DNA from: Candidatus Woesearchaeota archaeon
Lineage (GTDB): Archaea > Nanobdellota > Nanobdellia > Pacearchaeales > GW2011-AR1
DNA length: 64,000 nucleotides
NCBI GenBank assembly: GCA_964358765.1
Contig: CAYHPN010000005.1
Coordinates: 13-64,012 of the forward strand
Direction of reading: 5' to 3'
A model generated the notes under the pieces. The model worked only from the letters and a program-made list of their open reading frames with translations, was not told the origin of the DNA and ran no database searches. Position 1 is the stretch's first letter; each line of letters begins with the position of its first letter. Below are positions 29,533 through 51,125 of this stretch, in pieces. The position numbers and the translations under genes were made by a program.

Positions 29533-29533
29533 T

Positions 29534-29923
29534 TTATAGATTTATTTTTTTAGAAATTTCATTAATATTCTTGTAAATTATTACTTCATTAGATATTCCT
29601 TTGATTGTTGTAGATATATCTGAACCTTCTTTAGCTAAAACAATGATTGGTTTATTTTTAGAATAAGCATAACCTGCTTCAATTCCGAGACCTACTCCTT
29701 TTTCTGAAAATTCTACTAAAAGCATATCTGCTTTATCAATTTCTTCAAAGGTTATTTTCATTAATTTATCAGGTTCAAATTTAACTTTTCCCCATTTTTC
29801 GTAATCTCGTATAATTGTCCTTACCCTAATGCCTACTTTTTCAAGCTCTTTACAAATATCTTCAATTAATTTTCTATTATTACAATCCTCATGAAACTTT
29901 ATAGACAAGAAAGCATTTTTCAT
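29534..29923 (-). CDS. nucleoside 2-deoxyribosyltransferase-like protein
   Basis: The KADMLLVEFSEKGVGLGIEAGYAYSKNKPII pattern (Gxx(E)xGYA...KPI) resembles the NDT-like/Rossmann-like family. 129 aa. Confidence 0.5.
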   Translation of the reverse strand: MKNAFLSIKFHEDCNNRKLIEDICKELEKVGIRVRTIIRDYEKWGKVKFEPDKLMKITFEEIDKADMLLVEFSEKGVGLGIEAGYAYSKNKPIIVLAKEGSDISTTIKGISNEVIIYKNINEISKKINL

Positions 29924-30531
29924 TTTAGTTTTCTCCTTAACTCATTCCAAGAAATTCTTTCAGCCCAGTTAGTAAATGGAGGATTAGTGAGAATCATTTC
30001 TTTTTCTTTTTCACTTCCTGAATAAGTCGCAACACCTTCAGTTAAAACTTTGACATTGTAACCTCTCCAGCTTAATTCTTGAGCAGTGCAGAAAACACAG
30101 CAATCAGAAGTTAGCCCTATGAGGACAACCTCATCTAAACTATTTGGTTTGCCTATCGTTTTGTCTAACCACTTTGTAAAAGCTTTGGGGTCTTGATAGG
30201 GTAGTCCTGCCTTCTTTTTAGGATTTCCAATATTCTCTCTTACCCAGATTGGAGAGTTCATACATTTAACCCAAACAGGTTTTTGTTTAATGTCCTCTGG
30301 AATCTCTGATTCATAGCCCCATTCTCCAGCTCTACAACTATCATCATTATCTGCTGGTCTCGGTAAACGATAGTCCGATATTATTTCAGCTACCTTAATG
30401 TTATGCTCTCTAAAGTAAGGGACTAAAGTGTTCTTAACAAAGTCAACACTCTTTCTGGGTCTATAATGCTTTCCTTTTTTATCACTAAAATCTTTCTGAA
30501 AGTCGACTGAGATTATTCTTATATTTGCCAT
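29920..30531 (-). CDS. isochorismatase-family cysteine hydrolase (nicotinamidase-like)
   Basis: Asp (IISVDFQKDF), Lys and nucleophile Cys (VVLIGLTSDCCVFCTAQE), typical of isochorismatase/PncA-like hydrolases. Confidence 0.7.
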   Translation of the reverse strand: MANIRIISVDFQKDFSDKKGKHYRPRKSVDFVKNTLVPYFREHNIKVAEIISDYRLPRPADNDDSCRAGEWGYESEIPEDIKQKPVWVKCMNSPIWVRENIGNPKKKAGLPYQDPKAFTKWLDKTIGKPNSLDEVVLIGLTSDCCVFCTAQELSWRGYNVKVLTEGVATYSGSEKEKEMILTNPPFTNWAERISWNELRRKLK

Positions 30532-31924: not shown

Positions 31925-32361
31925 TAATGGGTTAGGGGTGTCTGCTTTTTTGAATGTTTTCGAACTACCAAAATAATTCCCAATATCATGGGTATTGTTG
32001 GATTAATTCCTGCTGTGCATGTGTGTCTGCGTGTTAGCAGACAGGAGAGAGCCGAGAAAAAAATTCTCATCTTTGACGCTCTCCTCACCTTATCGAGGCT
32101 ATTTATAGAGGAGAACTAACAGTTTAAACCCCTTGCCCTATTCAACAAGAGACCTCTTTCTGAAAGCTGTCTGCCCCCAGTGTCTAATAAGTTGACCTCT
32201 GGAGGAAAAATAATATTTTGTCGAATGTAAATTCAGTTTTCTAAATCAAAATTGAAACAGGGTCAATGTCTGAAAATCTTCAGACAGGGAAAGTAGACAG
32301 CGATAGAGTATCCTCAAAGTGCGATACAAATCTTTTATACAAGAGGGACTAAAAGAATGGA
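31925..32361 (+). promoter_or_regulatory. conserved non-coding region with TGTCT(G/A) iterons, a hairpin and a TATA-like box
   Basis: Block-wise conserved with 39275-39731. Forward TGTCT(G/A) at 31939, 32024, 32168, 32181 and 32267. Reverse AGACA at 32037-32044, 32281-32287 and 32294-32300. Hairpin GTCTGC(32025)/GCAGAC(32037). ctatttatagagg with tttata at 32102-32107. Confidence 0.6.
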
Positions 32362-32853
32362 ATGGTAAAGACTTATGGAGCAGTAGATAGAAGACATAGA
32401 AAGAGAAGAAGTGATGCTGGAAGAAAGAGAAGAAGTTATAGGGGCAAACCTGTTAAAAAGAAAAGAGATATTCTCTGGCAAAAAAGAATCGGAGATAAAC
32501 AAACATTAAAACTATGGGTCTGGGAAAAGGGAACAATGTCTCGGGATGGAAGAAGTAAATGGAATAGAAGAATCAGACCTTTCATCAAACCAATAGTCTA
32601 CAGATTCAGAATGAGAATTGATGCTGATATTTCTTACCTAACTACTAAAGAAAAGATTGAACAATTCCTTTTAGATATAATTGAATATGATGGCGAGTTT
32701 CTTCTTATGGGTTTCAGCAATGCAAAAAATAGGTTTCATACTAAGCCAGTAAAAATTTGTAGAGTTGTTATATTCAATTCGAGAGAAGGACTTAGAGCCA
32801 GAATGATTCAAGATTACAGACTATGGAGATACTGGTTTTACAAAGGAGATTAA
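32362..32853 (+). CDS. conserved basic protein coupled to the serine recombinase (unknown function)
   Basis: Homologous to 39741-40226 (shared LKLWVW(E/Q)K(G/E)TMS, GRSKWNR, RPFIK, RMRIDA, SYLTTK, MGFSNA, KPVKICR, MIQDYRLWRYWFY). It ends 1 nt before the recombinase start. Confidence 0.7.
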   Translation: MVKTYGAVDRRHRKRRSDAGRKRRSYRGKPVKKKRDILWQKRIGDKQTLKLWVWEKGTMSRDGRSKWNRRIRPFIKPIVYRFRMRIDADISYLTTKEKIEQFLLDIIEYDGEFLLMGFSNAKNRFHTKPVKICRVVIFNSREGLRARMIQDYRLWRYWFYKGD

Positions 32854-32854
32854 A

Positions 32855-33613
32855 ATGGAATCTAAAACAAATTCACAAAGTGCAGTAGCTTATATTAGAT
32901 TATCTTCTGATGATAGTTCTAACCCTTCACTATCCCCTCAAAACCAACAAGACATTATAAGGAATCATGCAGAAGCCAAAGGACTAAACATAATTCAAAT
33001 ATATGAAGACATAAACAAGACTGGCTCTAACATCTTCAGAAAGGGGCTTGAACAATTAATGAAAGATGCAAGAGAAGGAAAATTCAATACAGTATTTATT
33101 AAGGACTGGTCAAGGCTCTCTCGAAACATCATAGACCAAGAAACAATAATCAAAGAGCTAAACAATCTCAAAATAGAAATAATCTCTTGCGATGGTATTG
33201 AAGACAAGAAAGCAAGACAGGTGACAGGACTAACAAATGAATGGTTTATTGATGAGTGCAAAAAGAAACAGCAACAAGTTCATAAGTTAAAACTGGAAGC
33301 AAAAATCCCTTGCTCCAGAGCCCCGTATGGATACTCTATGAGTAAGAAGCTAAAGAAATTTATCGTGAATCAAGAAGAAGCTCAGGATGTAAAAAAGATA
33401 TTTGAATTAAGAAGTGAAGGAAAATCAATCAGTGAAATAGCCCGAGAGTTTAAGATGTCTCCCAGTAAAGTTTTTGGAATACTAAGGAACAAGACTTATC
33501 TTGGTTTTATAAAATACAAGTCCGAATTAATTCAAGCCCATGAACCTATAATAACTGAAGAGATGTTCAGCAGGGTGAATAATAATTCAGTTTATTCATC
33601 TGGAAAAAAATAA
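32855..33613 (+). CDS. small serine recombinase (resolvase/invertase-type)
   Basis: Catalytic N-terminus AVAYIRLSSDDSSNPSLSPQNQ. HTH GKSISEIAREFKMSPSKVFGILRN. Long identical stretches with 40219-40962 (QIYEDINKTGSNIFRKGLEQLMKDA). Confidence 0.82.
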   Translation: MESKTNSQSAVAYIRLSSDDSSNPSLSPQNQQDIIRNHAEAKGLNIIQIYEDINKTGSNIFRKGLEQLMKDAREGKFNTVFIKDWSRLSRNIIDQETIIKELNNLKIEIISCDGIEDKKARQVTGLTNEWFIDECKKKQQQVHKLKLEAKIPCSRAPYGYSMSKKLKKFIVNQEEAQDVKKIFELRSEGKSISEIAREFKMSPSKVFGILRNKTYLGFIKYKSELIQAHEPIITEEMFSRVNNNSVYSSGKK

Positions 33614-37879: not shown

Positions 37880-38128
37880 ATGAAAAAAACAGAAATAAAC
37901 TCTCCTCGAGACATGATTACTTTTTTATGGTCAAAGAATGAAAGAGCCAATAAACAAATTCGCAAGTTAATACATCATACGGATGAAGTAAGAAAAATGG
38001 GATTCGAATTGTTTGATGAGAATACTAAAAAATATTATAGACGTCTGGTGGTTGATATGATTTGCTCAATAGAAAAGGCAAAACAGGAAATTCTTAAAAT
38101 TAAAGGGGAGCTTGATGGAGGAAAATAA
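37880..38128 (+). CDS. hypothetical small protein
   Basis: ORF track (82 aa), tightly packed between two element genes. Confidence 0.45.
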   Translation: MKKTEINSPRDMITFLWSKNERANKQIRKLIHHTDEVRKMGFELFDENTKKYYRRLVVDMICSIEKAKQEILKIKGELDGGK

Positions 38129-39236
38129 AATGGACAATATAAACACAAACAAAGATACAAACAAAATAATCGAAGAAATCAATAAGGTATTGAATAAACA
38201 AAGAATGCACTATAAAGAGATTTATGAACAATTAATCTCGGAAAAAGTTATTCCGCCTAATTCAGAAAAGGAGTTCAAAAATCTTTATGCATGGGCTTTA
38301 GAAATGGGATATATTGATAAGATGAGAATAAAAAACTGGGGCAAGAAAAGAGGAAAGCTCCCAAAGTATTTTACTAAGAAACAATTAATCCAAATATTTG
38401 ATGTTGCAGATAGACCTAAAGATGCGATTGCTTTTTTTCTTGCATTAATGTGTGGTTTGAGAATAAATGAAATCTGCACCCTAAAAATAAGGAATATTGA
38501 TTTTGAGAATCATAGACTCTTTATAGGGGACAGTAAAAATCCAAATAGGTCAAGAGATAATTATGGAAAAGATAGATATGTTGATTTTGACCCAGCAATA
38601 GAAGGAGTATTAAAGAAGTGGATTGAAATAATCGGAAACAGCAGTGAATGGTTTTTACCTTCAGATAAAAGTCCAGATATGCATTTAAGAAATAAATCTT
38701 TGCATGAAAGATTAAGATTATACCTAAAGGAAGCAGGGATTCTTCAAATAGATTATACAATGAAAGTTTCTCAAAGAGTAAGAGGAAAGAGAATCATAAA
38801 AACAGTGAACAGATACACAAGATATTTTCATTGCTTCAGACACACAATGGCTTGCATAATTTATAATAAAACTGGAGATATTTATGTTGTGAATAGATTT
38901 TTAGGACATAATCAATTAGATACGACCGCAGTTTATGCAAAAGTGATAGACACAAAGATGAAAACATCAATCGCAAGTGTATTTAATTCGCTTCATTATA
39001 ACTTTCATAATGGAGAGCATTTGCCAAATCCAAACCCCATCAAGAGCACCCTAACACAGTCATCTCCAGTAGTGGAAACTGTAGCCAACAGCCCGTTAGA
39101 TTTGTTAGGACTTCAGCTTGTTAATAATGAAATAAGTCAAGAAGAATATGTTAGAAAAAGAAAGCTTCTGGAGTCTGAAGGCTATAAACAAATCATTGAA
39201 ATAAAAGACTCAAGTGAAAATGAAAGGAAAAGATAA
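38115..39236 (+). CDS. tyrosine recombinase/integrase with N-terminal extension
   Basis: GLRINEICTLK, HCFRHTMACI, FLGHNQLDTTAVYAKV. The track start at 38112 is TTG, and the first ATG is at 38115. Confidence 0.86.
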   Translation: MEENKMDNINTNKDTNKIIEEINKVLNKQRMHYKEIYEQLISEKVIPPNSEKEFKNLYAWALEMGYIDKMRIKNWGKKRGKLPKYFTKKQLIQIFDVADRPKDAIAFFLALMCGLRINEICTLKIRNIDFENHRLFIGDSKNPNRSRDNYGKDRYVDFDPAIEGVLKKWIEIIGNSSEWFLPSDKSPDMHLRNKSLHERLRLYLKEAGILQIDYTMKVSQRVRGKRIIKTVNRYTRYFHCFRHTMACIIYNKTGDIYVVNRFLGHNQLDTTAVYAKVIDTKMKTSIASVFNSLHYNFHNGEHLPNPNPIKSTLTQSSPVVETVANSPLDLLGLQLVNNEISQEEYVRKRKLLESEGYKQIIEIKDSSENERKR

Positions 39237-39274: not shown

Positions 39275-39731
39275 ACTTGGTCTGCCTCAGGAAATGATGG
39301 GTGTCTGTATTTTAGATTGATTTTCAAATGGCAAATTAATTTTGAATAGGATGGGCATTGATTGATTTATTATTGCACTGCATGTGTGTCTGCGTGTAGG
39401 TAGACAGGAGAGAGCCGAGAAATAAATTCGTCATCTTTGATACTATCCTTACATTATCGACGCTATTTATAGAGGATAAACAACCTCCTTAGTATGATTA
39501 ACCCATTCAACAAGAGTCCTCTTTCTGAAAGCTGTCTACTCCCAATGTCTGGAAAAGATGACGACTGGAGGAAATATCATCTGATGGTTAAGTTTGTCGA
39601 ATGTAAAATTATCTGGCTAACTCGCCTTAGAGGAAAGTAGGGGGTGTCTAATAATTGGGAGGATTGGGAAGTAGACAAATTTTCTTCATTCCTAAAATCG
39701 CAATACAAGCCATATATACAAGGGGGTCTTT
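39275..39731 (+). promoter_or_regulatory. conserved non-coding iteron region (counterpart of 31925-32361)
   Basis: TGTCT(G/A) at 39302, 39387, 39533, 39546 and 39645. Reverse AGACA at 39401-39407 and 39672-39677. Hairpin GTCTGC(39388)/GTAGAC(39400), which keeps a G-T/U pair. tttata at 39466-39471. Confidence 0.6.
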
Positions 39732-39740
39732 TTGAATAGT

Positions 39741-40226
39741 ATGAAGACTGTTGGAGCAATTGATAAAAGGAAAAGAAGACAAAGAAGCGACTATGGAAAG
39801 AAGAGAGAGTTCTACAGAGGCAAACGTGTTAAAAAGAGAAGAGAAATAATCTGGAATAAAAAACAAGGACAGAAGGAAGTGTTGAAATTATGGGTGTGGC
39901 AAAAGGAAACAATGAGCCCCGAAGGGAGGTCTAAATGGAATAGGAAAGTTAGACCTTTCATTAAGAATATTGTTTACATCCCAAGAATGAGAATTGATGC
40001 CCATGTAAGTTATCTAACAACAAAGCAAAGTATAGAACAACTCTTTCTCGAAGTAATAGGTTACACTGGAGAGTTTTTAATTATGGGCTTCAGTAATGCA
40101 GGAAACAAATTCCATTGCAAACCTGTAAAGATTTGCAGAATTATTATTCACGAATCTAAAGAATGTCTTCGGAGCAGGATGATTCAAGATTACAGACTCT
40201 GGAGGTATTGGTTTTATCATGACTGA
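39741..40226 (+). CDS. conserved basic protein coupled to the serine recombinase
   Basis: The track start at 39732 is TTG. ATG 39741 gives MKTVGAIDKRKRRQRSD, parallel to MVKTYGAVDRRHRKRRSD of 32362. It overlaps the recombinase gene by 8 nt. Confidence 0.7.
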   Translation: MKTVGAIDKRKRRQRSDYGKKREFYRGKRVKKRREIIWNKKQGQKEVLKLWVWQKETMSPEGRSKWNRKVRPFIKNIVYIPRMRIDAHVSYLTTKQSIEQLFLEVIGYTGEFLIMGFSNAGNKFHCKPVKICRIIIHESKECLRSRMIQDYRLWRYWFYHD

Positions 40227-40962
40227 AAATGAATCTAAGATAATCAATGCAGTAGCCTATATTCGCTTATCTGCGGATGATAGTGCTAACCCTTCATTGT
40301 CTCCTCAAAACCAACAAGACATCATAAGGAGTCATGCAGAAGCTAAAGGATTAAAGATAGTTCAAATATATGAAGACATAAACAAGACAGGCTCAAATAT
40401 TTTTAGAAAGGGACTTGAGCAATTAATGAAAGATGCAAACTCCAAAAAATTCCAAGTTGTAATTTTTAAAGACTGGTCAAGAATCTCCAGAAGTATCGTA
40501 GACCAAGAGTCAATAGTAAAAGAATTGAACAGTATGGGGATTGAAGTAATTTCTTGTGATGGAGTCTCAGATAAAAAGATTAGGCAAGTAACGGGGCTTA
40601 CCAATGAATGGTTCATTGATGAGTGCAGGAGAAAACAACAGCAAGTTCACAAAATAAAGCTTGAAGCAAAAGTTCCATGTTCAAGACCCCCTTACGGATA
40701 TTCAATGAGCAAAAAACTAAAGCGTTTTGTTATTAATCCAGAAGAAGCTCAAGATGTTAAAAGAATCTTTGAATTAAGAAGTGAAGGAAAATCGATTAAC
40801 GAAATAGCCAAAGAGTATAAGATGTCTCCAAGTAAGATTTTTGGGATGCTTAAAAACCAAAGTTATCTGGGTTTCATAAAATACAAAACCGAACTAATCC
40901 CAGCCCATGAACTAATAATATCGCCAGAGCTTTTCAATAAACTGAATAATAATTCAGCCTAA
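40219..40962 (+). CDS. small serine recombinase
   Basis: AVAYIRLSADDSANPSLSPQNQ. HTH GKSINEIAKEYKMSPSKIFGMLKN. Confidence 0.82.
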   Translation: MTENESKIINAVAYIRLSADDSANPSLSPQNQQDIIRSHAEAKGLKIVQIYEDINKTGSNIFRKGLEQLMKDANSKKFQVVIFKDWSRISRSIVDQESIVKELNSMGIEVISCDGVSDKKIRQVTGLTNEWFIDECRRKQQQVHKIKLEAKVPCSRPPYGYSMSKKLKRFVINPEEAQDVKRIFELRSEGKSINEIAKEYKMSPSKIFGMLKNQSYLGFIKYKTELIPAHELIISPELFNKLNNNSA

Positions 40963-41147: not shown

Positions 41148-43892
41148 ATGGGATTAGAACTACACACACGAAATAATCTACTGGCAGATAAAGAAGAGGT
41201 TACATCGGATGAATATCTGGAAGTATACGGAAGTAGGATAGTCCAGGATAGCGAAAAATTGTTTTTGAAAGATTTTCTATTCCCTCTTCTTGGCAAGAAA
41301 GGGATGATTTATGTAATACCCCAATATCCATTTATTGATTCTGAGGGAAGATTAAGAAGAATTGATTTTGCGTTAATCAAAGACAACATAAAAATTGCTC
41401 TGGAAGTTAATGGAGAAACTTATCATGCTGAGGGAATAATTCCAAATGACATGTTCGATGATAACTTACAACGACAAAATGAGATATTAAATGCTGGATG
41501 GAATTTACAAAGATTTTCTTTCAATCAGTTACAAGATGACCGTTGGAGAAAAAGAGTCATGGATATGTTGCATAAAGTTGTCTCACGATATGCCCCAGAG
41601 ATAATTTCAGAAGATTCGATTAAACCTAATTATTTACAGGTTATGGCTTTAGAGGCACTTGATTTTTATCGAGAAAAAGGATGGAAAAAAGGTATTGTAG
41701 TTCTTCCTACAGGGACTGGAAAAACTTTTCTGTCTGCATTCGATGCTAAAAAGTTTGATGGTAGAGTATTGTTTATTGTCCATAGAATAGATATTTTAAG
41801 CCAGTCTAAGGATGCTTTTGAAAAAGTATGGGCACAAGCTAAACTGGGATTGCTAACAGGAGAGGTTAAAGAGCATCTTCATGATTCTAAAGTTTTATTC
41901 GCCTCTAAGGATAGCCTAAGAAATCCAGAATACCTCTCTTTATTTTCTCCGACAGAATTTGATTATATAATTATAGATGAGGTTCATCATGGACAAGCTC
42001 CCTCTTATCAGTCGATTATTAAACATTTTCAGCCAAGAAAATTCATTCTTGGGATGACGGCAACACCTGATAGGATGGATAGAAAAGATATATTTGAATT
42101 ATTTGATTACAATAAGGTTTTTGAGTATACTTTAAATGATGCTATTGAAAATGGATTCTTAGTTCCCTATACTTATTATGGTCTAAAGGATAATATAGAT
42201 TATTCCAAAATAAGATATAATGGTCTGAAATATAATGTGCAAGACTTGGACAAGTATCTCATTATAGAAAAAAGAAATGAGCAAATTCTGAAGGAATATA
42301 TTGAGAAAGGGGGAGGAAATAAAGCATTAGGTTTCTGTTGTTCTATTCATCATGCAAATAAAATGGCACAGTATTTTAATGAGCATGGGATTCCTGCTAT
42401 AGCAATAACTTCTGAAACAGAAAATAGGGAAGACAAGATTAAGGATTTTAGAGACAATAAATATGCAGTTGCTTTCACTGTAGACATATTTAACGAGGGA
42501 ATTGATTTTCCAGACCTAAGAGTTCTATTATTTATAAGACCTACAGAATCGAAGACGGTTTTTATGCAACAATTAGGTAGGGGACTAAGATTGTCTCCAG
42601 GAAAAGAGAGGGCAATTGTTTTAGATTTTATTACAAATTATAAAAAAGCTAATCAGATTAGAAAATATCTTTCTAAAAGAAGTAAAGAAAAAAAAGCCAC
42701 TTCAGGAAGAATAGAGAAGATTATTTACGAGTATGTTCCAAAATGTGAAGTTCATTTTGATTCAGAAGTAGAAGAAATATTAAATAGGCAAGATAAAGAT
42801 GAAAGAGAAATCTCAAAAGAAGACTTATTAGATTCGTATTATTCTCTCGCTGAAAAACTTGGAAGAAAACCAACACAAGAGGACATCAATGAGCAAGGGG
42901 AATTTAAGGTCTCAAAATATATCTCTATTTATGGCTCATGGATTAAGTTTCTTCGTGAAATTGGAGAGTTCACAGAAGCAAGTTATCATTATCCTCAAGG
43001 AGTCCATTTAGGACATATCTTCTATATACTAAAAACTCTGTCAGAAAATAAACGGGAGAAAACACACTTAGATGATTCATACATTAGAATTAGAGGTAAT
43101 CTCGGTTCAGATAGAGTAGGCACATTTCAAAGACAAACTAAATATAAATTGCAAGCTTTAATGGAAATGGGTCTCATAACGGATGATAGAACACTTAGCT
43201 CCGATGAAAAATATAATATAGAATTAACTCCTGAAGGGAAAGAGCTCTATAGAATTTTGAAACCTCTAATCGGAAAAGTTGATTTATCTTTCTCAAAAAA
43301 TGAAGGAGGAATACCTTCATGGGACATGAAATTAAATCCACAAGAATTTAATGTTGCACTCTGGAATTTTGTTCAATCAGATAAAACAAAAAAAGAATAT
43401 ATCCAAAGAGAAATATTAGAAATTCATGCAGTTTCGCAAATGTTAAACTATTTATATAAAATTGAAAGGCAAAAGACAATAAAAAAATCTTCTGTATATG
43501 AGGGATTTTTTAAAGCACCATTTGTTAAAATGTATTGTGACCAAAATGGCATAGATATTGCGACAGAGGAAGGGGCGAAACATAGATGTCCCTTTTTGTT
43601 GAATTTGCTGGAATCAATAGGAGTTTTATCTCAGACAAGAAGTGAAATTATTTTGTCGAAATTTTTAGTATGTAAACAGACTATGCAAATTTATTCCAAA
43701 GAAAGTGAGGGAAACATTAGTGATAGGATTCACAGAGTCGGCAAGATTCTGTCAGCAAAATCATCCGATAAATTAGACTCCGAAGAAGAATCATTACTCA
43801 AGGAGAATTTTGGGAAGTTATTCTTATCAGATAAATTTTATTTATCGGACTTTGAGATTTTAAATAATAGCGGTGATAAAAATGTCAAATAA
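41148..43892 (+). CDS. DUF559/Vsr-like endonuclease domain fused to an SF2 (type III restriction Res-like) helicase, with a ~350-aa C-terminal region
   Basis: Nuclease-like RRIDFAL...IALEVNGETYH...NAGWNLQRF. Helicase motifs I VLPTGTGKT, II IIDEVHH, III GMTATP, VI QQLGRGLR. 914 aa. Confidence 0.75.
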   Translation: MGLELHTRNNLLADKEEVTSDEYLEVYGSRIVQDSEKLFLKDFLFPLLGKKGMIYVIPQYPFIDSEGRLRRIDFALIKDNIKIALEVNGETYHAEGIIPNDMFDDNLQRQNEILNAGWNLQRFSFNQLQDDRWRKRVMDMLHKVVSRYAPEIISEDSIKPNYLQVMALEALDFYREKGWKKGIVVLPTGTGKTFLSAFDAKKFDGRVLFIVHRIDILSQSKDAFEKVWAQAKLGLLTGEVKEHLHDSKVLFASKDSLRNPEYLSLFSPTEFDYIIIDEVHHGQAPSYQSIIKHFQPRKFILGMTATPDRMDRKDIFELFDYNKVFEYTLNDAIENGFLVPYTYYGLKDNIDYSKIRYNGLKYNVQDLDKYLIIEKRNEQILKEYIEKGGGNKALGFCCSIHHANKMAQYFNEHGIPAIAITSETENREDKIKDFRDNKYAVAFTVDIFNEGIDFPDLRVLLFIRPTESKTVFMQQLGRGLRLSPGKERAIVLDFITNYKKANQIRKYLSKRSKEKKATSGRIEKIIYEYVPKCEVHFDSEVEEILNRQDKDEREISKEDLLDSYYSLAEKLGRKPTQEDINEQGEFKVSKYISIYGSWIKFLREIGEFTEASYHYPQGVHLGHIFYILKTLSENKREKTHLDDSYIRIRGNLGSDRVGTFQRQTKYKLQALMEMGLITDDRTLSSDEKYNIELTPEGKELYRILKPLIGKVDLSFSKNEGGIPSWDMKLNPQEFNVALWNFVQSDKTKKEYIQREILEIHAVSQMLNYLYKIERQKTIKKSSVYEGFFKAPFVKMYCDQNGIDIATEEGAKHRCPFLLNLLESIGVLSQTRSEIILSKFLVCKQTMQIYSKESEGNISDRIHRVGKILSAKSSDKLDSEEESLLKENFGKLFLSDKFYLSDFEILNNSGDKNVK

Positions 43893-44835
43893 ATCACATT
43901 TTAACGCAGGACATAGAGGCATGAATTTTTTGAAGAAAAAAGGGATAAAACATAGTTCTAATATTGATTTCGTAATTCCTGAAAAAACTTATCATGGATT
44001 TTTTATTAAAGACTCTATACAGTTTTTAAAAACACTTCCAGACTCATCTGTGCAGTTGGTATTAATTGACCCCCCGTATAATTTAGATTTGGAGACGTGG
44101 GATACTTTTTCAGATTATTTAGATTGGGCAAAACAATGGATGGATGAAATATATCGAGTATTAAAAGATTCTGGAAGCTGTGTTATTTTTGGAGGATTTC
44201 AATACCAAGATTTAAAGAAAGGCGATTTATTAGAACTTTTACATTATGCTCGACATAAAACTAAACTAAGATTTACAAATTTAGTTATTTGGTATTATAA
44301 GAATGGTATGAGTGCACATAGATTTTTTGCTAATCGTCATGAAGAGGCAGTATGGTTGACAAAAACAAAACAATATTATTTTGATTTAGATTCAGTTAGA
44401 GCACCGTATTCGGAAGAAGCTAAAAAATCGGCACTTCGGGATAAAAGACTTGTTCCTGAAAATATTGAAAAAGGAAAAAATCCTACCAATGTCTGGGAGA
44501 TTGGTAGGTTAAATGGTAATTCTGTTGAAAGAGTTGGACACCCCACTCAAAAACCATTGGAGATTATAAGAAGATTTGTTAATAGCCTTTCTTATCCTGG
44601 CTCAATAGTATTGGATTTTTTTGCAGGTTCTGGAACAACAGGAAGAATTTGCATAGAAGAGGGTCGCCATAGCATACTTGTAGACAATGACCCCAAATCA
44701 TTAGATTTTTTCAATAAACATTTGAATAATATGAAATCGACAGGGGATATAAAGTCCCATGAGGTTTTTATCAATCCAGATTTAAATGATTTATTAAAAA
44801 AATTGGAAGAAAAAGAAAGTATCCAAAAGAATTAA
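43882..44835 (+). CDS. DNA methyltransferase, beta-class (N6-adenine or N4-cytosine)
   Basis: Catalytic motif IV LIDPPYNL precedes AdoMet motif I VLDFFAGSGTTG. The track start at 43873 is GTG and the first ATG is at 43882. It overlaps the upstream gene. Confidence 0.82.
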   Translation: MSNKSHFNAGHRGMNFLKKKGIKHSSNIDFVIPEKTYHGFFIKDSIQFLKTLPDSSVQLVLIDPPYNLDLETWDTFSDYLDWAKQWMDEIYRVLKDSGSCVIFGGFQYQDLKKGDLLELLHYARHKTKLRFTNLVIWYYKNGMSAHRFFANRHEEAVWLTKTKQYYFDLDSVRAPYSEEAKKSALRDKRLVPENIEKGKNPTNVWEIGRLNGNSVERVGHPTQKPLEIIRRFVNSLSYPGSIVLDFFAGSGTTGRICIEEGRHSILVDNDPKSLDFFNKHLNNMKSTGDIKSHEVFINPDLNDLLKKLEEKESIQKN

Positions 44836-44841
44836 TAAACA

Positions 44842-45528
44842 ATGATAAAACAAAAAGAAGTGGCAATCGAACAGAAAGGTTATAAGTTATCACCATCAAC
44901 ATTGAACTTAATGCATGAGTGTCCTCGATGTTTTTGGTTATCTGAACATGATGTATGGAAAAGACCAAACGGAATATTCCCCTCGCTTCCTTCTGGGATG
45001 GATGGTGTTTTAAAAAAACATTTTGATAAGTTTATGGAAAAAGGAAAACTTCCTCCCGAGTTATGTGATAATTCTGAATGTAAAAACCTTAAACTATTTG
45101 ATGATAAGGAGCTCTTGAAAGAATGGAGAAACTCCAGAAAAGGATTATGGTTTGAAGATAAAGAAGGGAATATTTTACATGGAGGAATTGATAATCTGAT
45201 GGTCAATAAGACTAATGGTAAATTTATTGTCCTTGACTACAAAACAAGGGGATTTCCATTAAAAGAAGATACACATGAACACTATCAAAGTCAGCTTAAT
45301 ATCTATGTTTGGCTTCTTGAGAAGTTAGGACATAAGACTGAAAACTTTGCATATTTGTTATTTTATCATCCTAAAGAAGTGTTAGAGACTGGAGAAGTTG
45401 TTTTTAATACAGATTTAAAGAAAATGAAAATCTCGCCTGAAGATGCAGAAAAGCTTTTCAATAATGCAATTAAAATGCTTAATGAAGACTGCCCAAAAAA
45501 ATCATGCTGTTGGTGTGAGAAGGTATAA
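44842..45528 (+). CDS. PD-(D/E)XK nuclease, Cas4/RecB-like, with Cys cluster
   Basis: N-terminal CPRCFW. Core GIDNL...VLDYKT. QSQLNIYVWLL (QxxxY). C-terminal CPKKSCCWC. Confidence 0.65.
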   Translation: MIKQKEVAIEQKGYKLSPSTLNLMHECPRCFWLSEHDVWKRPNGIFPSLPSGMDGVLKKHFDKFMEKGKLPPELCDNSECKNLKLFDDKELLKEWRNSRKGLWFEDKEGNILHGGIDNLMVNKTNGKFIVLDYKTRGFPLKEDTHEHYQSQLNIYVWLLEKLGHKTENFAYLLFYHPKEVLETGEVVFNTDLKKMKISPEDAEKLFNNAIKMLNEDCPKKSCCWCEKV

Positions 45529-45591
45529 AATGGAGTCTACCTCAAAATGCAATTCCGATAATTCTAAAAAGTTCGCTATAATGGGGTTAAT

Positions 45592-46158
45592 ATGTTAGGA
45601 GACATATATTTAGGAACTGCACTTGCTATTTTTTTAGCAATCTTTGGATGGAGCGAAAGTATTTTTGGTTTATCTCAGAGAACAAAAGAAAAGGAAGCAG
45701 ATTTCATTAGAAAATCAAAACTGACATTCGAGAAATACCTTGAATTGAAAAAGCTTATTTCTGCAACACAAAAACTTGGGCAGGCAGAATATACAAAGAA
45801 ACTCGCAAGTATCCTTAAAGGAACGCATATCGGGGCAGGTGACAAGGGCACATTCGATAAACTAAGGGAAAATAGTTTAACTCTTACTCAATGGGATAAA
45901 CAAAATAAAAACAAAAAGACCGTATTAAGTGGATTGTTTATCTATCTCTTTATAGCTGGAACAGTCATGCTACTTTTTGAAAATAATGTAACACCTTTTT
46001 TTGAGATGAGCTTGGAGTCATGGATGATAATCTTTCAATCTATACTCTTCATAATTATCATAGTTGGAGCGTTAATATTCAACAAAATAAGGAAATTTGA
46101 GATTGAGATACAGTCAAATTTGAACTATCTCATATTGAGGATTCCCTCAGGGGAGTAA
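45592..46158 (+). CDS. three-TM membrane protein with a ~100-aa soluble loop
   Basis: TM helices LGTALAIFLAIFGW, LSGLFIYLFIAGTVMLLF and MIIFQSILFIIIIVGALIF. No family recognised. Confidence 0.55.
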   Translation: MLGDIYLGTALAIFLAIFGWSESIFGLSQRTKEKEADFIRKSKLTFEKYLELKKLISATQKLGQAEYTKKLASILKGTHIGAGDKGTFDKLRENSLTLTQWDKQNKNKKTVLSGLFIYLFIAGTVMLLFENNVTPFFEMSLESWMIIFQSILFIIIIVGALIFNKIRKFEIEIQSNLNYLILRIPSGE

Positions 46159-46159
46159 T

Positions 46160-46525
46160 ATGGGTGGAAGAAAGTCCTATCCAAACAAAAAGTATCTTGG
46201 TGACTCAGCAGGAGTCAAGAAAGAAGTTAAACAGTTAAAAGACTACATCGAAAACAAAGATGTAGAAAAAATATCTTCTCAAGCATTTAATGTTCTATCG
46301 ACTGCAAGAAAACCTATACAATATTCAGCTTATTCAACAAAATTCTTTCCAGAAGTAATAAAGAATCTTCCTAAATGGAAAGAAGAAAAAGATGTCAATC
46401 AGCTAAGAAGGGAAGTAACATCTTCTTGGTCTAAAGTTAAAGAAAAAAATAAGCTTAGTGTTCCAAAAGAAGTAGACAGGATAATAGTCGAGAATACGGT
46501 TAAATTAGTGGAGGGCAAAAAATGA
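46160..46525 (+). CDS. hypothetical Lys-rich protein
   Basis: ORF track (121 aa). It starts 1 nt after the upstream stop and overlaps the downstream gene by 4 nt. Confidence 0.5.
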   Translation: MGGRKSYPNKKYLGDSAGVKKEVKQLKDYIENKDVEKISSQAFNVLSTARKPIQYSAYSTKFFPEVIKNLPKWKEEKDVNQLRREVTSSWSKVKEKNKLSVPKEVDRIIVENTVKLVEGKK

Positions 46526-46857
46526 GCTCTCCATCTATCTCTAATGTCAGAACCGTTTATATCGAATGGCATGTGGATATTGTAATGGATTTAATAGACC
46601 AGATATTAAAATCACCTCAGTTAATTTCTGGCACAAATCAGATTAATCCGAATGATGCCACACATATTAAAAAGAATCAAAAGAAAATTGCCACAGTCGC
46701 ATTAGAAAAGGAAGCGGATTATCTAATTAAAAAATATAAGATTACCGACACAGATGAGCTGTTTAAAGTTATTGGAGATTTATCCTCTAAAAAGATTGAG
46801 ACTCTCAGAAGAAAATGTATTGATGAAGCAATAAAGGAACTCGCAAAAAATGGCTAA
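46522..46857 (+). CDS. hypothetical protein
   Basis: ORF track (111 aa). It is coupled by overlaps on both sides. Confidence 0.5.
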   Translation: MSSPSISNVRTVYIEWHVDIVMDLIDQILKSPQLISGTNQINPNDATHIKKNQKKIATVALEKEADYLIKKYKITDTDELFKVIGDLSSKKIETLRRKCIDEAIKELAKNG

Positions 46858-48085
46858 GAAATTATTCTATTGTTCTCCCAATCCCTTGATGCGTTTTCTA
46901 TGGGAGGACGAAATCTCTGCAACATTATACTGTATTGCCAACACCCTATTCATGTTAGAAAAGAAAATTAAAAATGAAGAATCACAAAAAACTGTGAGTA
47001 TTGATTACTTTGGAGAAATCACCCAAGAAAACCAAAAGAAAATAAGTGCTCTATTAAGAAATATAGTATTAGATGTTCTATGCGAGGATGTTAATTTTGT
47101 CTTCAAAAAGCGAGAGTTACCTAAAAGTAAAAAAAAGAGAACCCCTACTTTTGAGCAGATTGATACTATTTGTTTATTCTCAGGAGGAATTGATAGCACT
47201 TTAGGAATACTTGAAAGTAAGAAGAAGTTTGATAAAGTGATGGGGCTATATATCGCCCATCAAGATTTAGGAAAGATTACCAGTAAAGTTGACAAAATTA
47301 AAAGAGAAGTATTAGACAGTGTAGGAATCCCCCTCTTTAAGTTTATAGCTCCCAGTATGGGGCAGGGGTATTCTCAACTTAGAGGTTTTCTATATGTTTT
47401 GTATTCTGCAATTTTATCAAGATACGTAAATGCAAAAAGAGTAATTGTAGCCGAATGCGGGGCTACAATGTATCAACCAAAATTTGCACCACTGGATACA
47501 ATCACATACACCACTCATCCAAGTGTCTTGAAACTCTCCAAACAAATATCTGAAATTATCTTAAAGAAACCATTTGAAATAATTACTCCTTTCGAAGATT
47601 TTACAAAGACCGAGATGATGACTTTACTCGCAGATGATGCATTACTTTCAAAAACACACTCTTGCGTAACTTCAAGATGGGATAAAAACTGCGGAACATG
47701 CTATGCTTGTATTTCTCGAATGATAGGAAGCGTAAATTTGGGTCTGTCTATTGATTATTTCAGGAGCAATGTTTTTGAAAGAAAAGATAATGAGATGTTA
47801 TCTTCTTTGATTCATTTTTGTTTAAACTTTGAGTTGCATCAAGACAATATTGACTATTGGTCTTTGAAAACAATTAAGTTATACCATAAAGAAGATTTAT
47901 TCACCAGAGCAAGTCAAGACATTTTTCTTTGCCTTAAAAAATTAGCAGAATTACAGAAACTGGATTCAGGTTATGAGATAGTTCTGGATTACTATTTGAA
48001 ATTCAAGTCAAAAGAACTTAGTAAAAGAGAAGAAATAATTAAAACCAACAGACTCTCAGCAAACTTTGAAAAAAAAGTTATTTAA
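46850..48085 (+). CDS. QueC-like PP-loop ATPase with a ~100-aa N-terminal extension
   Basis: PP-loop CLFSGGIDSTLG. The Cys motif C-x8-C-x2-C-x2-C (HSCVTSRWDKNCGTCYACISR) has the spacing I recall for the QueC zinc site. Confidence 0.75.
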   Translation: MAKKLFYCSPNPLMRFLWEDEISATLYCIANTLFMLEKKIKNEESQKTVSIDYFGEITQENQKKISALLRNIVLDVLCEDVNFVFKKRELPKSKKKRTPTFEQIDTICLFSGGIDSTLGILESKKKFDKVMGLYIAHQDLGKITSKVDKIKREVLDSVGIPLFKFIAPSMGQGYSQLRGFLYVLYSAILSRYVNAKRVIVAECGATMYQPKFAPLDTITYTTHPSVLKLSKQISEIILKKPFEIITPFEDFTKTEMMTLLADDALLSKTHSCVTSRWDKNCGTCYACISRMIGSVNLGLSIDYFRSNVFERKDNEMLSSLIHFCLNFELHQDNIDYWSLKTIKLYHKEDLFTRASQDIFLCLKKLAELQKLDSGYEIVLDYYLKFKSKELSKREEIIKTNRLSANFEKKVI

Positions 48086-48648
48086 TCTCTTTGTATCGGA
48101 ACTTTTCCCTCTGCCTGAATTTCTTTGGATAGCTCGATAATTAATGCATCATTTTTCTTAACAGTTTCTACACTGACACCTGTCGCAAATGCAATATCTC
48201 CCTCATCATTGTATATTCTATTTGGACTATACCAGTCACGAAGCCCTTCGGGGTCATATGGCTCATAACCTTCTAAGATTCGTTGTTTAAGGGTTTCTCT
48301 ATATCTCTCCTCTTCTTTTTGTTTACACTCTTCAGGAGATTTTCCAAGAGAGATTAATGCAGGTATTAGAGAAGTCCATATCTGATTTTGTAAATCTTCC
48401 ATAAAAGTAGGATGTTCGATTGAAAGCTTCATAATCTTATTATAGGACTCGTCATCTTTAATCCACTTACTCACAGTATCCTTTGAGACTCCAAATCTGC
48501 GAGCCAATCTTCTCAAGCTATAATGCTGAGGACAATCCATATGTAACCATCTACAAAATCGAAGCTCTATTAATCTCCGATATTCAATTTTTAATTTTAG
48601 TAATCGTTTAAATTCTTTCAAATCCTTAGAAGATAAATCAGAGCTCAT
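48082..48648 (-). CDS. HTH-containing element protein
   Basis: YSLRRLARRFGVSKDTVSKWIK. Last gene of the minus-strand replication operon. Convergent 4-nt overlap with 46850-48085. Confidence 0.55.
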   Translation of the reverse strand: MSSDLSSKDLKEFKRLLKLKIEYRRLIELRFCRWLHMDCPQHYSLRRLARRFGVSKDTVSKWIKDDESYNKIMKLSIEHPTFMEDLQNQIWTSLIPALISLGKSPEECKQKEEERYRETLKQRILEGYEPYDPEGLRDWYSPNRIYNDEGDIAFATGVSVETVKKNDALIIELSKEIQAEGKVPIQRD

Positions 48649-48812: not shown

Positions 48813-51125
48813 TTACCTCAGTGCCTTCCAGTAATCTGGCTTTGGATTGAAAATTTCCCCTCTTGAACGCAGATATTCAAGCACACGCATTAGTTTTACT
48901 GAATCTGAATAGTATTCAAGAAGTATTTTTGTATTTGCACCTATCCCCTCATCCAATCGAATTATATCTGCGAGAACATTTTGAGCGTTGATTTCCTTTG
49001 ATTTACAATCAGCATCCGAAACAGGCGTCATGACAGTCAGAGTGTCAGAAGATTCCTTATCTAATGTGTCAGGTGTCTGAAAGGTGTCAGAATGCCATTT
49101 ATTAATTTCATCGTCACTATACTTACACTCTGACACTTCTGACACTTTATTTTTAATAGAAGCAAGATTTGCATTATTTTGTCTAATTAAAATCTCACAT
49201 AACTTGAAGAATCCCAGCCTATACCCTCTTTGGTTGCCTGTGGGATTGGCTTTGTAATCAGTAAACCCTAATTCACGCATCAATATGCCTATCTTTGTAT
49301 TACTGACCTTATACTGATTATTTCCAGTAGAGTTCAATAATTCAATGAATCTCTCTTTTAAACGGTCAGTGGGTATGAATGTGTCAGTTTTAGCTCTACA
49401 ATACAAATCGATTAGGACTTTTGATAATATCATATCCCAAGAATTTTCATCGAGTTTATCGTCACGTATGTCGAATAACTTAGCAATGAAATTCCCCACT
49501 TCTTTTTCTAATTCCAAATCAACACAATGAGCCATAGCAATAATTGGTTTAGCCAGAATCCACTGCCTATTCTGAAGATTATAATTATTCTCAACAGTTT
49601 CAAGTGCATCCTTAAATTGCCTATAGTTTTGAAGCCCATTAATATAAGCTAAATCTCTTGCCTTGCTGTATTCCACATCAGTTTCAGTAGGGATTTCAAC
49701 ATTTCCTCGAATATCTTTTGATGGTGCAATTATCATATTAAGAGGGATGCTCCTCTTCTCTAAAGCTCCTTTGAGGGGATTAATTGAGCCTATTCGAGTA
49801 AATCCAGCAGGGTCAAATTCATCGGTCTGTTTTATATTGACATCATTTTGTCTTGGAACAGTATTCCCTTTCTCATAACTTCCATTAAGGTATTCGACGA
49901 GTTCAGAATCCCCCACATTTTTCTTTTTAGTATCATCAAATAATCTCTCAGCTTCTTCAATGTAAAGTGTCGCTTTATTATTGTGCCTATATCTAAAGAA
50001 ATTTGCAGGTGTCGGACAAAGAAACTTTTTTCCATTAAAAGATAAATTAGCACTTACCTTCATTCCTTTGCTTTTTGCACTGCCTGTAATCCCTCCATGC
50101 TTAATCATCAGAAACTTATCAAGCATATCCCAATAATATGTGCACATATCCCACAAAACACATAGAGAATACCATTGAGGAAACTCAAAGACCATAGAAT
50201 TATCATAGAATTTTTTAAACTCAGAATATACATTTTTGAAAGTTATATCGTCAGAATTATACAATCTTCTGCAAAAAGAATTTATAGAAGAAAGAGACCA
50301 CCGATTTCGTTTTAGGGTCATGACTGAATCAAAAACAAATTTAAAATCAGAGGATTCTGAATGTTCAGATATTATTTCGCCATTTTCAAAAACAAGAGCA
50401 TCTACTTTTTTATTTGTCAATGAATTATCTTTAGTTATAATCTCTTGATGAATCTTTGTTCCATAATATCTGTAAGTGACTCCGTTGATGTTAACAGAAC
50501 CAACCGCATGGTCAATAAGCGGAGGCAGATTAGATTCGTCAAGTATAAATGGTTTAAGTTTTCTCTCTCTTTCAATTCTTAATTTATTTAATCTAAACTC
50601 TTCAAGTAGGGGCTCTGTGATATTAATACCCTCTTCTTTATCTATAACTTCTTTTATTTTTCCTGTCTTCCAATGGGCAGTATTTTCTATTGGAATGAGA
50701 TGACTATCTATCTTTAGTTGAGAGTCACACCCATATCTGGATATTAAATATTCTCTTAGCTCCTCTCGTTCTTTTTTTTCTAATAGAGCTAACTTCATAT
50801 CATAGAAGAAATGTATATGTCTTGCTCTTTGTTCATCAGTTGAATAAGCATAAAATTTGAATCCGTCCTTTCTTAATCGAGATATTAGACTCAAATAATC
50901 TTCATAGTTGCCATTGTCCAAGTCCAGTATAATCTCATTTTTTAATAATTCTCTTTGGTTAACTTCGGAAATAAGCTTATCATTTCCTTGCACATCTAAG
51001 TAATTATGCCACTTAGATATTTTTTCGTCTCCATTTTTATCTTTGTATGTAGAAGCTAATCTAAAGTCGGTTGCCTGCTTCCCCATTTCATAATACAAAT
51101 AGTCGAGCCAAACTTTTTTATCCAT
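48813..51125 (-). CDS. replication protein: prim-pol (AEP)-like N-terminus plus P-loop NTPase plus C-terminal wHTH-like region
   Basis: AEP-like EIILDLDNG (DxD) and RARHIHFFY (HxH). Walker-A-like GITGSAKSKG. 770 aa. Architecture is like pRN1-type plasmid replicases. Confidence 0.6.
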   Translation of the reverse strand: MDKKVWLDYLYYEMGKQATDFRLASTYKDKNGDEKISKWHNYLDVQGNDKLISEVNQRELLKNEIILDLDNGNYEDYLSLISRLRKDGFKFYAYSTDEQRARHIHFFYDMKLALLEKKEREELREYLISRYGCDSQLKIDSHLIPIENTAHWKTGKIKEVIDKEEGINITEPLLEEFRLNKLRIERERKLKPFILDESNLPPLIDHAVGSVNINGVTYRYYGTKIHQEIITKDNSLTNKKVDALVFENGEIISEHSESSDFKFVFDSVMTLKRNRWSLSSINSFCRRLYNSDDITFKNVYSEFKKFYDNSMVFEFPQWYSLCVLWDMCTYYWDMLDKFLMIKHGGITGSAKSKGMKVSANLSFNGKKFLCPTPANFFRYRHNNKATLYIEEAERLFDDTKKKNVGDSELVEYLNGSYEKGNTVPRQNDVNIKQTDEFDPAGFTRIGSINPLKGALEKRSIPLNMIIAPSKDIRGNVEIPTETDVEYSKARDLAYINGLQNYRQFKDALETVENNYNLQNRQWILAKPIIAMAHCVDLELEKEVGNFIAKLFDIRDDKLDENSWDMILSKVLIDLYCRAKTDTFIPTDRLKERFIELLNSTGNNQYKVSNTKIGILMRELGFTDYKANPTGNQRGYRLGFFKLCEILIRQNNANLASIKNKVSEVSECKYSDDEINKWHSDTFQTPDTLDKESSDTLTVMTPVSDADCKSKEINAQNVLADIIRLDEGIGANTKILLEYYSDSVKLMRVLEYLRSRGEIFNPKPDYWKALR

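Follow-up and report, generated by a model that had tools for sequence, protein, structure and literature searches.

The attachment of a small molecule to the N-terminus of a protein by enzymes of the QueC family was discovered only in 2025-2026, in type IV CBASS (cyclic-oligonucleotide-based antiphage signalling system) and in QatABCD, and the chemistry of QatC and the mechanism downstream of it are still unresolved. In type IV CBASS, Cap9 conjugates 7-amido-7-deazaguanine to Gly2 of the CD-NTase, whose N-terminus is MGGS (PMC13279940, PMC13639016). QatB starts with MGTS, its Gly2 sits in the active site of QatC, defence is lost with the G2D change and the QatB peptide GTSKAY has been detected with an NDG modification; the N-terminal glycine is essential in both QatB and CdnD and is placed in the active site of the QueC-family enzyme (PMC13279940, PMC13639016). 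A survey of the family PF06508 in 2026 found qatA or qatD in only about a third of the QatC-cluster neighbourhoods and described no other partner sets, leaving the remaining neighbourhoods and several archaeal clusters uncharacterised (PMC13329287).

The window examined here, a stretch of 64,000 nucleotides from a Candidatus Woesearchaeota archaeon (assembly GCA_964358765.1, contig CAYHPN010000005.1, positions 13 to 64,012 of the forward strand), contains a cassette of four genes encoding, in order, a protein with three transmembrane (TM) spans, two small proteins called B and C, and a QueC-like enzyme called Q. The original prediction, made from the sequence alone, had proposed that Q was related to the defence branch of the QueC family and had a new set of partners. 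Both proposals were borne out: QatC was the closest relative of Q by profile and by fold, and Q keeps its partnership with the TM protein and the two small proteins in 22 non-redundant loci. Among known systems the QatBC core of QatABCD comes nearest, with Cap9-CdnD next. A full-text search of a limited literature collection found no description of this gene set, only Qat and CBASS papers and the PF06508 survey coming to the surface, and the match to an already described system that the original prediction had allowed for was not seen. On balance the cassette is best read as a QueC-family N-terminal protein conjugation immune module, of which QatBC and Cap9-CdnD are the known examples, with the membrane protein as its likely effector or anchor. 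It seems to be related to two known antiviral systems and undescribed until now, and it is not a categorically new mechanism.

The QatC-like enzyme Q and its putative substrate B

In Q a QueC-type Rossmann core (residues ~105-295) lies between an alpha/beta extension at the N-terminus (~1-100) and a helical one at the C-terminus (~296-411), and the PP-loop starts ~100 residues later than that of QueC. The N-terminal extension of ~100 aa had been recognised in the original prediction and stands in the AlphaFold2 model, but the helical C-terminal extension of ~120 aa had gone unmentioned. The model, built on an alignment of 55 Q-family sequences, was confident (predicted local distance difference test, pLDDT, 92.5; predicted template-modelling score, pTM, 0.92). 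When it was compared with known structures using Foldseek, QatC from the QatB-QatC crystal (9y02_B) aligned over 398 columns (E 1.2e-10, template-modelling score 0.61/0.59, 16% identity), whereas QueC and Cap9 aligned over the ~200-column core only. This indicates that the extensions of Q are those of QatC.

Profile searches gave a similar picture. QatC was the best NCBIfam and PADLOC match of Q (NCBIfam NF041925, E 5e-17 and 61.9 bits over residues 51-291; PADLOC, E 1.5e-12), although the curated equivalog cut-off of 280 was not reached. The score against the QueC model TIGR00364 was 31.3 bits, below its cut-off of 150. A profile of 55 Q-family sequences found QatC in the PDB at 1e-8, QueC at 2e-6 and Cap9 at 4e-3. 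A hidden Markov model (HMM) of the cassette-family Q proteins scored true members at 585-678 bits, looser variants at 77-328 and a genuine Sulfitobacter QatC at 48.

The PP-loop SGGIDS at residues 111-116 and the zinc-site motif C-x8-C-x2-C-x2-C at 272-287, both listed in the original prediction, were confirmed in the sequence. Across the family SGGxDS was found in 54/55 members, S111, G113, D115 and S116 being invariant in the alignment (A1). The zinc site, as C-x8-[C/D]-x2-C-x2-C, was found in 52/55; C272, C284 and C287 are invariant in A1 and the second ligand is Cys in 23 sequences and Asp in 29, the latter including most bacterial members. P-x4-TK was present in 54/55 members and T-x-T-x-x-P in all 55, with T219, T221 and P224 invariant in A1. 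Profile alignment placed T219-x-T221-T-H-P of Q upon TRTTHP of QatC, and the Sulfitobacter QatC carries TRTAHP. In QatC this Thr pair takes the place of the Tyr/Asp residues with which QueC and Cap9 bind deazaguanine, and it is essential for Qat defence (PMC13279940, PMC13639016). Cap9 itself is a minimal enzyme of ~185 aa which keeps the Tyr/Asp site of QueC, in contrast to the 411-aa Q with its Thr-x-Thr, and the Cap9 motifs [YF]xQx5E, RN and YxDC occurred in no more than 3/55 Q members.

Q therefore shares with QatC (PDB 9y01/9y02, 9zee, 9vlk) the three-domain architecture, the PP-loop, Thr-x-Thr-x-x-Pro, P-x4-TK and a four-ligand zinc site. It differs from QatC in its low identity (~16%), in falling under the family cut-off and in lacking the QatC N-domain motifs D-x4-R-x7-W-x-R and D-x-[WY]-x3-F, which a regular-expression search found in 0/55 members. 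The zinc sites also differ, the first spacer being x8 in Q, as is canonical for QueC, and x15-19 in QatC (C-x19-C-G-x-C; x15 in Sulfitobacter), with Asp in place of the second Cys in many Q proteins. By sequence and modelled fold, Q is a distinct QatC-like clade and is not QueC, not Cap9 and not a QatC equivalog.

Q has in common with QueC the Rossmann PP-loop core, SGGxDS and the C-x8-C-x2-C-x2-C motif. Some features of Q would suit a housekeeping QueC making 7-cyano-7-deazaguanine (preQ0) for archaeosine or queuosine, namely the canonical C-x8-C spacing, a weak Pfam QueC match on the C-terminal part of the protein and the public annotation of its homologues as '7-cyano-7-deazaguanine synthase'. 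However, the canonical substrate motifs YxQxHxxE, VPxRN and YPDC were counted in 0/55 members, and Q has 411 aa, with two extra domains made of ~220 additional residues, compared with ~220 aa for QueC. Q also lacks a que-gene neighbourhood, queD and queE being found neither in the window ORFs scanned nor among the called genes of homologous loci, and its operon partners belong to no known family. Nor can a queC deletion be complemented by QatC, the nearest relative (PMC13329287). A housekeeping role is thus extremely improbable.

The original prediction had seen no recognisable motif in either small protein, and for B this has to be corrected. When the B proteins of 22 loci, which are 13-73% identical to the window copy, were aligned, only M1, G2, G3, R4 and W90 were invariant, with G14 and K94 nearly so, and a 60-sequence alignment agreed. 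The N-terminus reads M-G-G-R-(K/R). Among 232 family members 187 start with MGGR, 13 with VGGR, which corresponds to a GTG start, and 5 with MGSRR; most of the others are fragments or proteins whose start was called wrongly, MGGR coming a few residues later. The ATG of the window copy is the earliest start codon in its frame. A search of 1.84 billion representative proteins with the B profile returned 107 clusters (50% identity), nearly all of 115-125 aa and matching from residue 1.

In the AlphaFold2 model of B (pLDDT 90.2) residues 1-8 are non-helical, the first ten have a mean pLDDT of 60, and six main helices follow. B is predicted to have an unstructured tail of ~8-16 residues ending at the conserved Gly14 and then a six-helix bundle. 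The protein is strongly basic, with an isoelectric point of about 10 in 20/22 sequences. In both the cassette and QatBC the enzyme gene comes right after a small all-helical partner with a Met-Gly N-terminus on a flexible tail, and the MGG(R) start of B resembles the MGG(S) start of the partner of Cap9 (type IV CBASS, PDB 9nto). QatB is the larger protein, with ~260-290 aa, MGTS, a tail of 30-90 residues and a ten-helix globular domain, against 120 aa, MGGR(K/R) and 8-16 residues for B. Lying beside the gene of a QueC-family enzyme, and having a flexible N-terminal tail and an invariant N-terminal Gly, B possesses the three features that define a substrate in the literature, and it is quite likely that Q and B are enzyme and substrate. 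That B might mimic a viral protein was also considered, and a Foldseek search of BFVD gave no match.

The coordinates of the cassette and its motifs are collected in Table 1. The four genes, their positions and their common strand were upheld by the list of open reading frames (ORFs), as were the junctions, a 1-nt spacer between the TM gene and B, a 4-nt overlap between B and C and an 8-nt overlap between C and Q.

Table 1. Genes and sequence features of the cassette, in window coordinates.
Feature	Coordinates	Strand	Basis	Description or proposed role
Gene 1 (TM)	45592..46158	+	ORF list	188-aa membrane protein; proposed effector or membrane anchor
Gene 2 (B)	46160..46525	+	ORF list	121-aa basic protein; proposed protein substrate modified at the Gly2 alpha-amine
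M1-G2-G3-R4 codons of B	46160..46171	+	Sequence, alignments	Proposed acceptor motif
Gene 3 (C)	46522..46857	+	ORF list	111-aa helical protein; proposed adaptor in one complex with B
Gene 4 (Q)	46850..48085	+	ORF list	411-aa QatC-like PP-loop ATP pyrophosphatase
Q PP-loop S111-G-G-I-D-S116	47180..47197	+	Sequence	Predicted to bind ATP pyrophosphate
Q T219-Y-T221-T-H-P224	47504..47521	+	HMM alignment to QatC 9zee_B, 9vlk_A	Counterpart of QatC Thr-x-Thr-x-His-Pro
Q P247-F-E-D-F-T252-K253	47588..47608	+	Motif count	P-x4-T-K, QatC-cluster signature according to PMC13329287
Q zinc-site motif C272-x8-C281-x2-C284-x2-C287	47663..47710	+	Sequence, motif count	
Intergenic region, 63 nt, A+T-rich	45529..45591	+	Sequence	5' of gene 1; possible promoter of the cassette's own

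Conservation and genomic setting of the cassette

Genomic contexts were collected from look-ups of six Q homologues, from a survey of GTDB with one genome for each species, which gave 24 loci, and from two reciprocal look-ups starting from B. HMMs made from seven seed loci were run on all ORFs of all loci and two gaps were inspected manually. Homologues of Q fall into at least 132 clusters. The arrangement TM-B(~120 aa)-C(~100 aa)-Q(~410 aa), in the same order and with tight spacing, was present in 22 non-redundant loci from both domains; identities of the cassette proteins range from 13 to 73% across loci and the order is kept even at 13-35% identity to the window copy. The reciprocal look-up from B returned the same cassette. 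The TM family was found 5' of B in 21 loci and the C family in 19 by HMM, the C slot in L019 and L026 being filled by C-sized ORFs. As the TM and C genes are conserved as strongly as B and Q, they belong to the core of the module and are not accessories.

The archaeal hosts are Nanoarchaeota, Woesearchaeota and unclassified archaeal metagenome-assembled genomes (MAGs). On the bacterial side the cassette was found in a Patescibacteria MAG, Terriglobia/Acidobacteriota, Pyrinomonadaceae, Eubacteriales and a Pseudomonadota genome (GCA_037200975.1, L035; with a 4.65-Mb contig). Family members from Aenigmatarchaeota and Pacearchaeota lie at contig edges and have an incomplete or different upstream region. 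The four-gene operon and the patchy mobile distribution recall QatABCD, from which the cassette differs in occurring also in DPANN archaea and Patescibacteria.

The partners of Q were compared with those of the known systems. Pfam scans took in ~50 of the window's 58 listed ORFs with 120 aa or more, the remainder overlapping larger ORFs, with thresholds of E<=1e-4 for 40 ORFs and E<=0.01 for the nine around the cassette. Library scans of the window agreed with the original prediction that the known partner sets (QatA/B/D; CD-NTase, tRNA-guanine transglycosylase (TGT) and oxoguanine glycosylase (OGG); DpdA) are absent. PADLOC, NCBIfam and Pfam gave no match to QatA, QatB or QatD for the window cassette, and the called neighbours of 8 homologous loci included neither a KAP NTPase nor a TatD family of Pfam. 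Where QatABCD has QatA (KAP NTPase) and QatD (TatD nuclease), the cassette has the three-TM protein and a ~100-aa helical protein. Type IV CBASS differs in having a CD-NTase, Cap10 (TGT-like), Cap11 (OGG-like) and a cyclic-nucleotide effector; CD-NTase and TGT were found neither in the window nor in homologous loci. As to modification of the Dpd type, no Pfam match to TGT, QueD, QueE or FolE was seen in the scanned window ORFs, as had been predicted, or in the called genes of homologous loci.

The flanks vary from locus to locus and include AlwI-type and MmeI-type restriction-modification (R-M) genes, N6_N4 methyltransferases, tyrosine integrases, conjugation genes (type IV secretion system), AbiJ and AIPR. 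When flank ORFs were clustered all-against-all no family occurred in more than 4 loci, and the recurring ones were methyltransferases, type I/IIG R-M enzymes and integrases. To judge from its gene order and flanks, the cassette is a module of four genes that is self-contained and moves horizontally.

This bears on the idea in the original prediction that the cassette might work with the adjacent R-M-like trio as one seven-gene system, possibly for deazaguanine modification of DNA. All seven genes of the window do lie on the same strand with short gaps, a PD-(D/E)XK gene also adjoins the cassette of L001, its closest relative, and Cas4-like/DUF2779 genes lie 1-5 kb away in three other archaeal loci. 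However, members of the methyltransferase family were found in 4 loci and those of the helicase family in 3, and neither their positions nor their strands were constant. The PD-(D/E)XK gene of L001 is divergent, and since it is on the opposite strand the L001 cassette must be transcribed independently. The trio is accounted for on its own as an R-M-type set (mREase_IV 8e-69, MTase_II 7e-109). Given that the trio is not conserved with the cassette, the seven-gene hypothesis was rejected, and we regard it as very improbable. A role in 7-deazaguanine DNA modification fares no better, there being no transglycosylase match in the window ORFs scanned and no canonical QueC substrate motif in any of the 55 Q sequences.

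The trio itself occupies 41148-45528 and the cassette is placed between it and recombinases. The first gene encodes a 914-aa protein in which a small nuclease-like domain at the N-terminus is fused to a ResIII/SF2 helicase and an HNH-associated repeat (the PADLOC mREase_IV match). It overlaps by 20 nt the gene of an N6/N4 methyltransferase (the PADLOC MTase_II match), and the third gene (44842-45528) encodes a Cas4-like PD-(D/E)XK protein bearing a C-terminal Cys cluster. From its sequence the trio looks like a self-sufficient R-M-type set, and the A+T-rich 63-nt region that follows it could possibly serve as a promoter for the cassette alone. In five archaeal loci Cas4-like PD-(D/E)XK or DUF2779 nucleases lie 0.1-5 kb from the cassette, their distance and orientation varying (L002 363-1856, L004 335-1780, L009 2024-3523, the window gene just given and L001 5965-6651). 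They are probably a feature of DPANN defence islands and not part of the module.

Two unrelated loci, L017 (6033-6839) and L019 (644-1384), have a gene for a second, shorter PP-loop protein (SGGLDS) no more than ~5 kb from the cassette. The two proteins are homologues of each other with a weak match to the Q HMM, and they might supply substrate, as canonical QueC or as some other PP-loop enzyme. In L013, L027, L031 and L032 the Q gene is truncated or frameshifted, and in the first three of these partner genes are missing as well, which suggests that the cassette decays frequently. No virus-borne copies were found in an IMG/VR scan or by tblastn of GenBank phages with cassette queries, and tblastn of plasmids gave only true qatC (~25% identity) and a Natrinema variant described below. 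Q also matches the 418-position phrog_1550, annotated as 'QueC-like queuosine biosynthesis' (E 1.2e-16), which may represent prophage-borne QatC-like proteins mislabelled as metabolic genes.

Further genes of the window were recorded. A ~1.7-kb segment is duplicated at 31936-33613 and 39299-40962 (70-90% identity, ~7.37 kb apart), each copy encoding an ORF of 163/164 aa and a serine recombinase, and tyrosine integrases are encoded at 26746-27630 and 38112-39236. Together these suggest that two integrated elements, adjacent or nested, surround the cassette. Downstream, a gene for a helix-turn-helix protein (48082-48648, minus strand) has a stop codon overlapping that of the cassette by 4 nt. 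On the minus strand it follows a gene convergent to the cassette for a 770-aa protein (48813-51125), which had no Pfam, NCBIfam, PADLOC or PHROG match and may be a replication or primase-type protein of an integrated element. L001 and L007 carry Prim-Pol or DUF3987 proteins at comparable positions. A gene for a 428-aa SET-domain protein (30537-31823, minus strand) lies just upstream of the first recombinase copy, and beside it, at 27897-30531 on the same strand, are isochorismatase-like, nucleoside 2-deoxyribosyltransferase-like, histidine phosphatase and GNAT genes.

Protein C, the membrane protein and looser variants

Protein C is helical by composition and has no invariant residues. The possibility that B and C are paralogues was rejected (hhalign probability 0.3%). 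A connection between them came from fused proteins. Locus L025 (5151-7200) encodes a 246-aa protein starting with MGGRK whose residues 142-210 match the C profile (hhalign probability 52%, E 1.4e-4), and P0318, a 210-aa protein also starting with MGGRK, matches it over residues 119-186 (probability 81%, E 1.2e-5). The existence of B-C fusions in two lineages suggests that B and C act together. In P0323 (251 aa) the partner of the MGGRK-type protein in the fusion is a different C-terminal domain, rich in Cys and resembling a zinc ribbon.

Hydropathy analysis of the 188-aa membrane protein found hydrophobic spans at ~5-26, 111-131 and 143-166, in keeping with the three spans of the original prediction, and a short C-terminal tail. 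Residues 27-110 form a helical, K/R-rich loop of ~85 aa (20 K+R against 10 D+E). By the positive-inside rule, this loop and the C-terminal tail are predicted to be cytoplasmic. The motif GWS(D/E)xI is conserved at the end of the first span; in the alignment (A5) G123, in the second span, is invariant and W20, F38 and E170 are conserved at 90% or more. The acidobacterial proteins have an added N-terminal extension consisting of a hydrophobic segment and then a Pro/Ser-rich stretch, and its sequence fits an outside-facing N-terminus.

When every alignment member was scanned there was no consistent Pfam match for the TM protein, B or C, and the window proteins gave none in PADLOC, NCBIfam or PHROGs. 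Scattered sub-threshold matches, such as OST3_OST6 (E 0.007) and PDC-S13 (E 0.007), were treated as noise.

Looser variants of the system lack the TM gene. One lies on a plasmid of Natrinema sp. DC36 (NZ_CP084474.1, L034, 3777-6110), with a second copy on NZ_CP084473.1. Its three overlapping genes encode a 159-aa protein starting with MGSASASS, an acidic 141-aa protein and a 479-aa QatC-like enzyme with the PP-loop SDGLDS, which is annotated as 7-cyano-7-deazaguanine synthase. A divergent three-gene variant was found in a Nitrososphaerota MAG (L029), and the TM-less L025 adjoins a DUF262-like gene. All three have one or two small proteins whose genes overlap that of a QatC-like enzyme of 446-479 aa in which T-x-T-x-x-P and P-x4-TK are kept, and the first small protein starts with MGS... 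in Natrinema and MGGRK... in L025. They differ from the cassette in their partners (159+141 aa, 160+96 aa or the single 246-aa B-C fusion) and in the HMM scores given above.

These variants are relevant to the proposal that the cassette is a minimal, highly diverged QatABCD in which B is a shortened QatB orthologue, QatA and QatD have been lost and the TM protein and C are lineage-specific accessories. L025, L029 and the Natrinema plasmid, with its MGSA-starting protein, could be intermediates; Q has the three-domain fold, T-x-T and P-x4-TK of QatC, B is all-helical with an N-terminal MG motif like QatB, and QatB and QatC alone suffice against some phages (PMC13279940). Set against this, Q scores far under the QatC cut-off, lacks both N-domain motifs and differs in zinc spacing, and neither B nor C shows similarity to QatB by HMM or profile comparison (for C, hhalign probability 0.15%), nor B by fold. 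Searches with NCBIfam and PADLOC models and with phmmer against the PDB for QatB homology of B or C were likewise negative. Given also that the TM and C genes are conserved as strongly as B and Q, descent from QatABCD by loss is an unlikely account of the cassette.

A proposed N-terminal conjugation module

A mechanism can be proposed for the conjugation module by analogy with QatBC and Cap9-CdnD. Removal of Met1 by methionine aminopeptidase is established when residue 2 is Gly. This peptidase would strip Met1 from B, exposing the alpha-amine of Gly2 on a short flexible tail, and Q would bind B, probably via its N- and C-terminal extensions, as QatC binds QatB. Q would then use adenosine triphosphate (ATP) at the PP-loop to adenylate a carboxylate substrate, by analogy 7-carboxy-7-deazaguanine, and attack of Gly2 upon the acyl-adenylate would give B an amide-linked N-terminal cap. 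Protein C would act in one complex with B, and the modified B/C complex would control the three-TM protein, which would be either a membrane-damaging effector causing abortive infection or the membrane anchor or sensor of the complex. Of these, an effector which damages the membrane and so causes abortive infection is tentatively favoured, and the data are equally compatible with a role as anchor or sensor.

DPANN and candidate phyla radiation hosts typically have a reduced metabolism and very small genomes. The choice of 7-carboxy-7-deazaguanine as donor is tentative, given the Thr-x-Thr that Q shares with QatC in place of the Tyr/Asp of QueC and Cap9, this reduced metabolism and the failure so far to reconstitute QatC with that compound. 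Given the very small host genomes and the QatC-type Thr-x-Thr, the attached group may not be a deazaguanine. The removal of Met1, the chemistry, the roles after modification and the antiviral role are all steps that we infer.

Several observations weigh against reading the cassette as an immune conjugation module. B has no detectable homology to QatB, the best Foldseek match in the PDB, 9y01/9y02 included, having E 1.9 and an hhalign comparison with a genuine Sulfitobacter QatB giving a probability of 0.8%, so the substrate role of B rests on its N-terminal motif and gene linkage. The tail of B is also much shorter than that of QatB. The QatC reaction has not been reconstituted in vitro and its first substrate is disputed (PMC13279940, PMC13639016). 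No deazaguanine biosynthesis gene was matched by Pfam in the window ORFs scanned. The TM protein matches no known effector family and its role is a guess. Neighbours of an obvious defence or mobility type are missing from some loci, for example that on a Terriglobia chromosome (L006), and we infer a defence role from homology and genomic context only.

The last two points would also suit a non-immune module for protein maturation, in which Q caps B for a mobile-element or cell-envelope function such as assembly or regulation of a membrane complex containing the TM protein. Three of the four proteins match no known family, and since neither viral contigs nor phage genomes yielded the cassette the argument from context is only circumstantial. 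However, both characterised relatives of this chemistry, Cap9 and QatC, are immune components, and the patchy distribution over two domains, the variable R-M, Abi and integrase flanks and the decayed copies (L013, L027, L031) form the pattern of accessory defence genes and not of housekeeping ones. There is thus a small chance that the module is non-immune, and an antiviral role for the cassette is moderately probable.

The fullest form of the proposal is that the cassette is a third, previously undescribed class of QueC-family conjugation immune module, the first in DPANN and Patescibacteria, in which a QatC-type enzyme caps Gly2 of B and a three-TM membrane protein reads out the modification. 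This falls just short of being probable. More repurposed QueC-like enzymes are reportedly predicted, in explicit terms, in the paper on type IV CBASS. The cassette would add a third, independent partner set for QueC-family conjugation, with an unrelated substrate protein which has converged on a Met-Gly N-terminus. Such convergence would strengthen the idea that a QueC-family enzyme together with a protein having an N-terminal glycine is a general, modular immune principle, would extend that principle to reduced-genome archaea and candidate-phyla bacteria and would link the chemistry to a membrane protein and not to a nuclease or nucleotide signal.

The analysis of the Q family also indicates that many database entries named '7-cyano-7-deazaguanine synthase' are mis-annotated. 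Natrinema sp. DC36 is a cultured haloarchaeon and its plasmid-borne relative could be an experimentally tractable archaeal variant. The small size of the proteins, with a 120-aa substrate and a short tail, possibly offers a simpler handle on what QatC-type enzymes attach, and if the cassette does represent a third class then this compact system could reveal the attached group.

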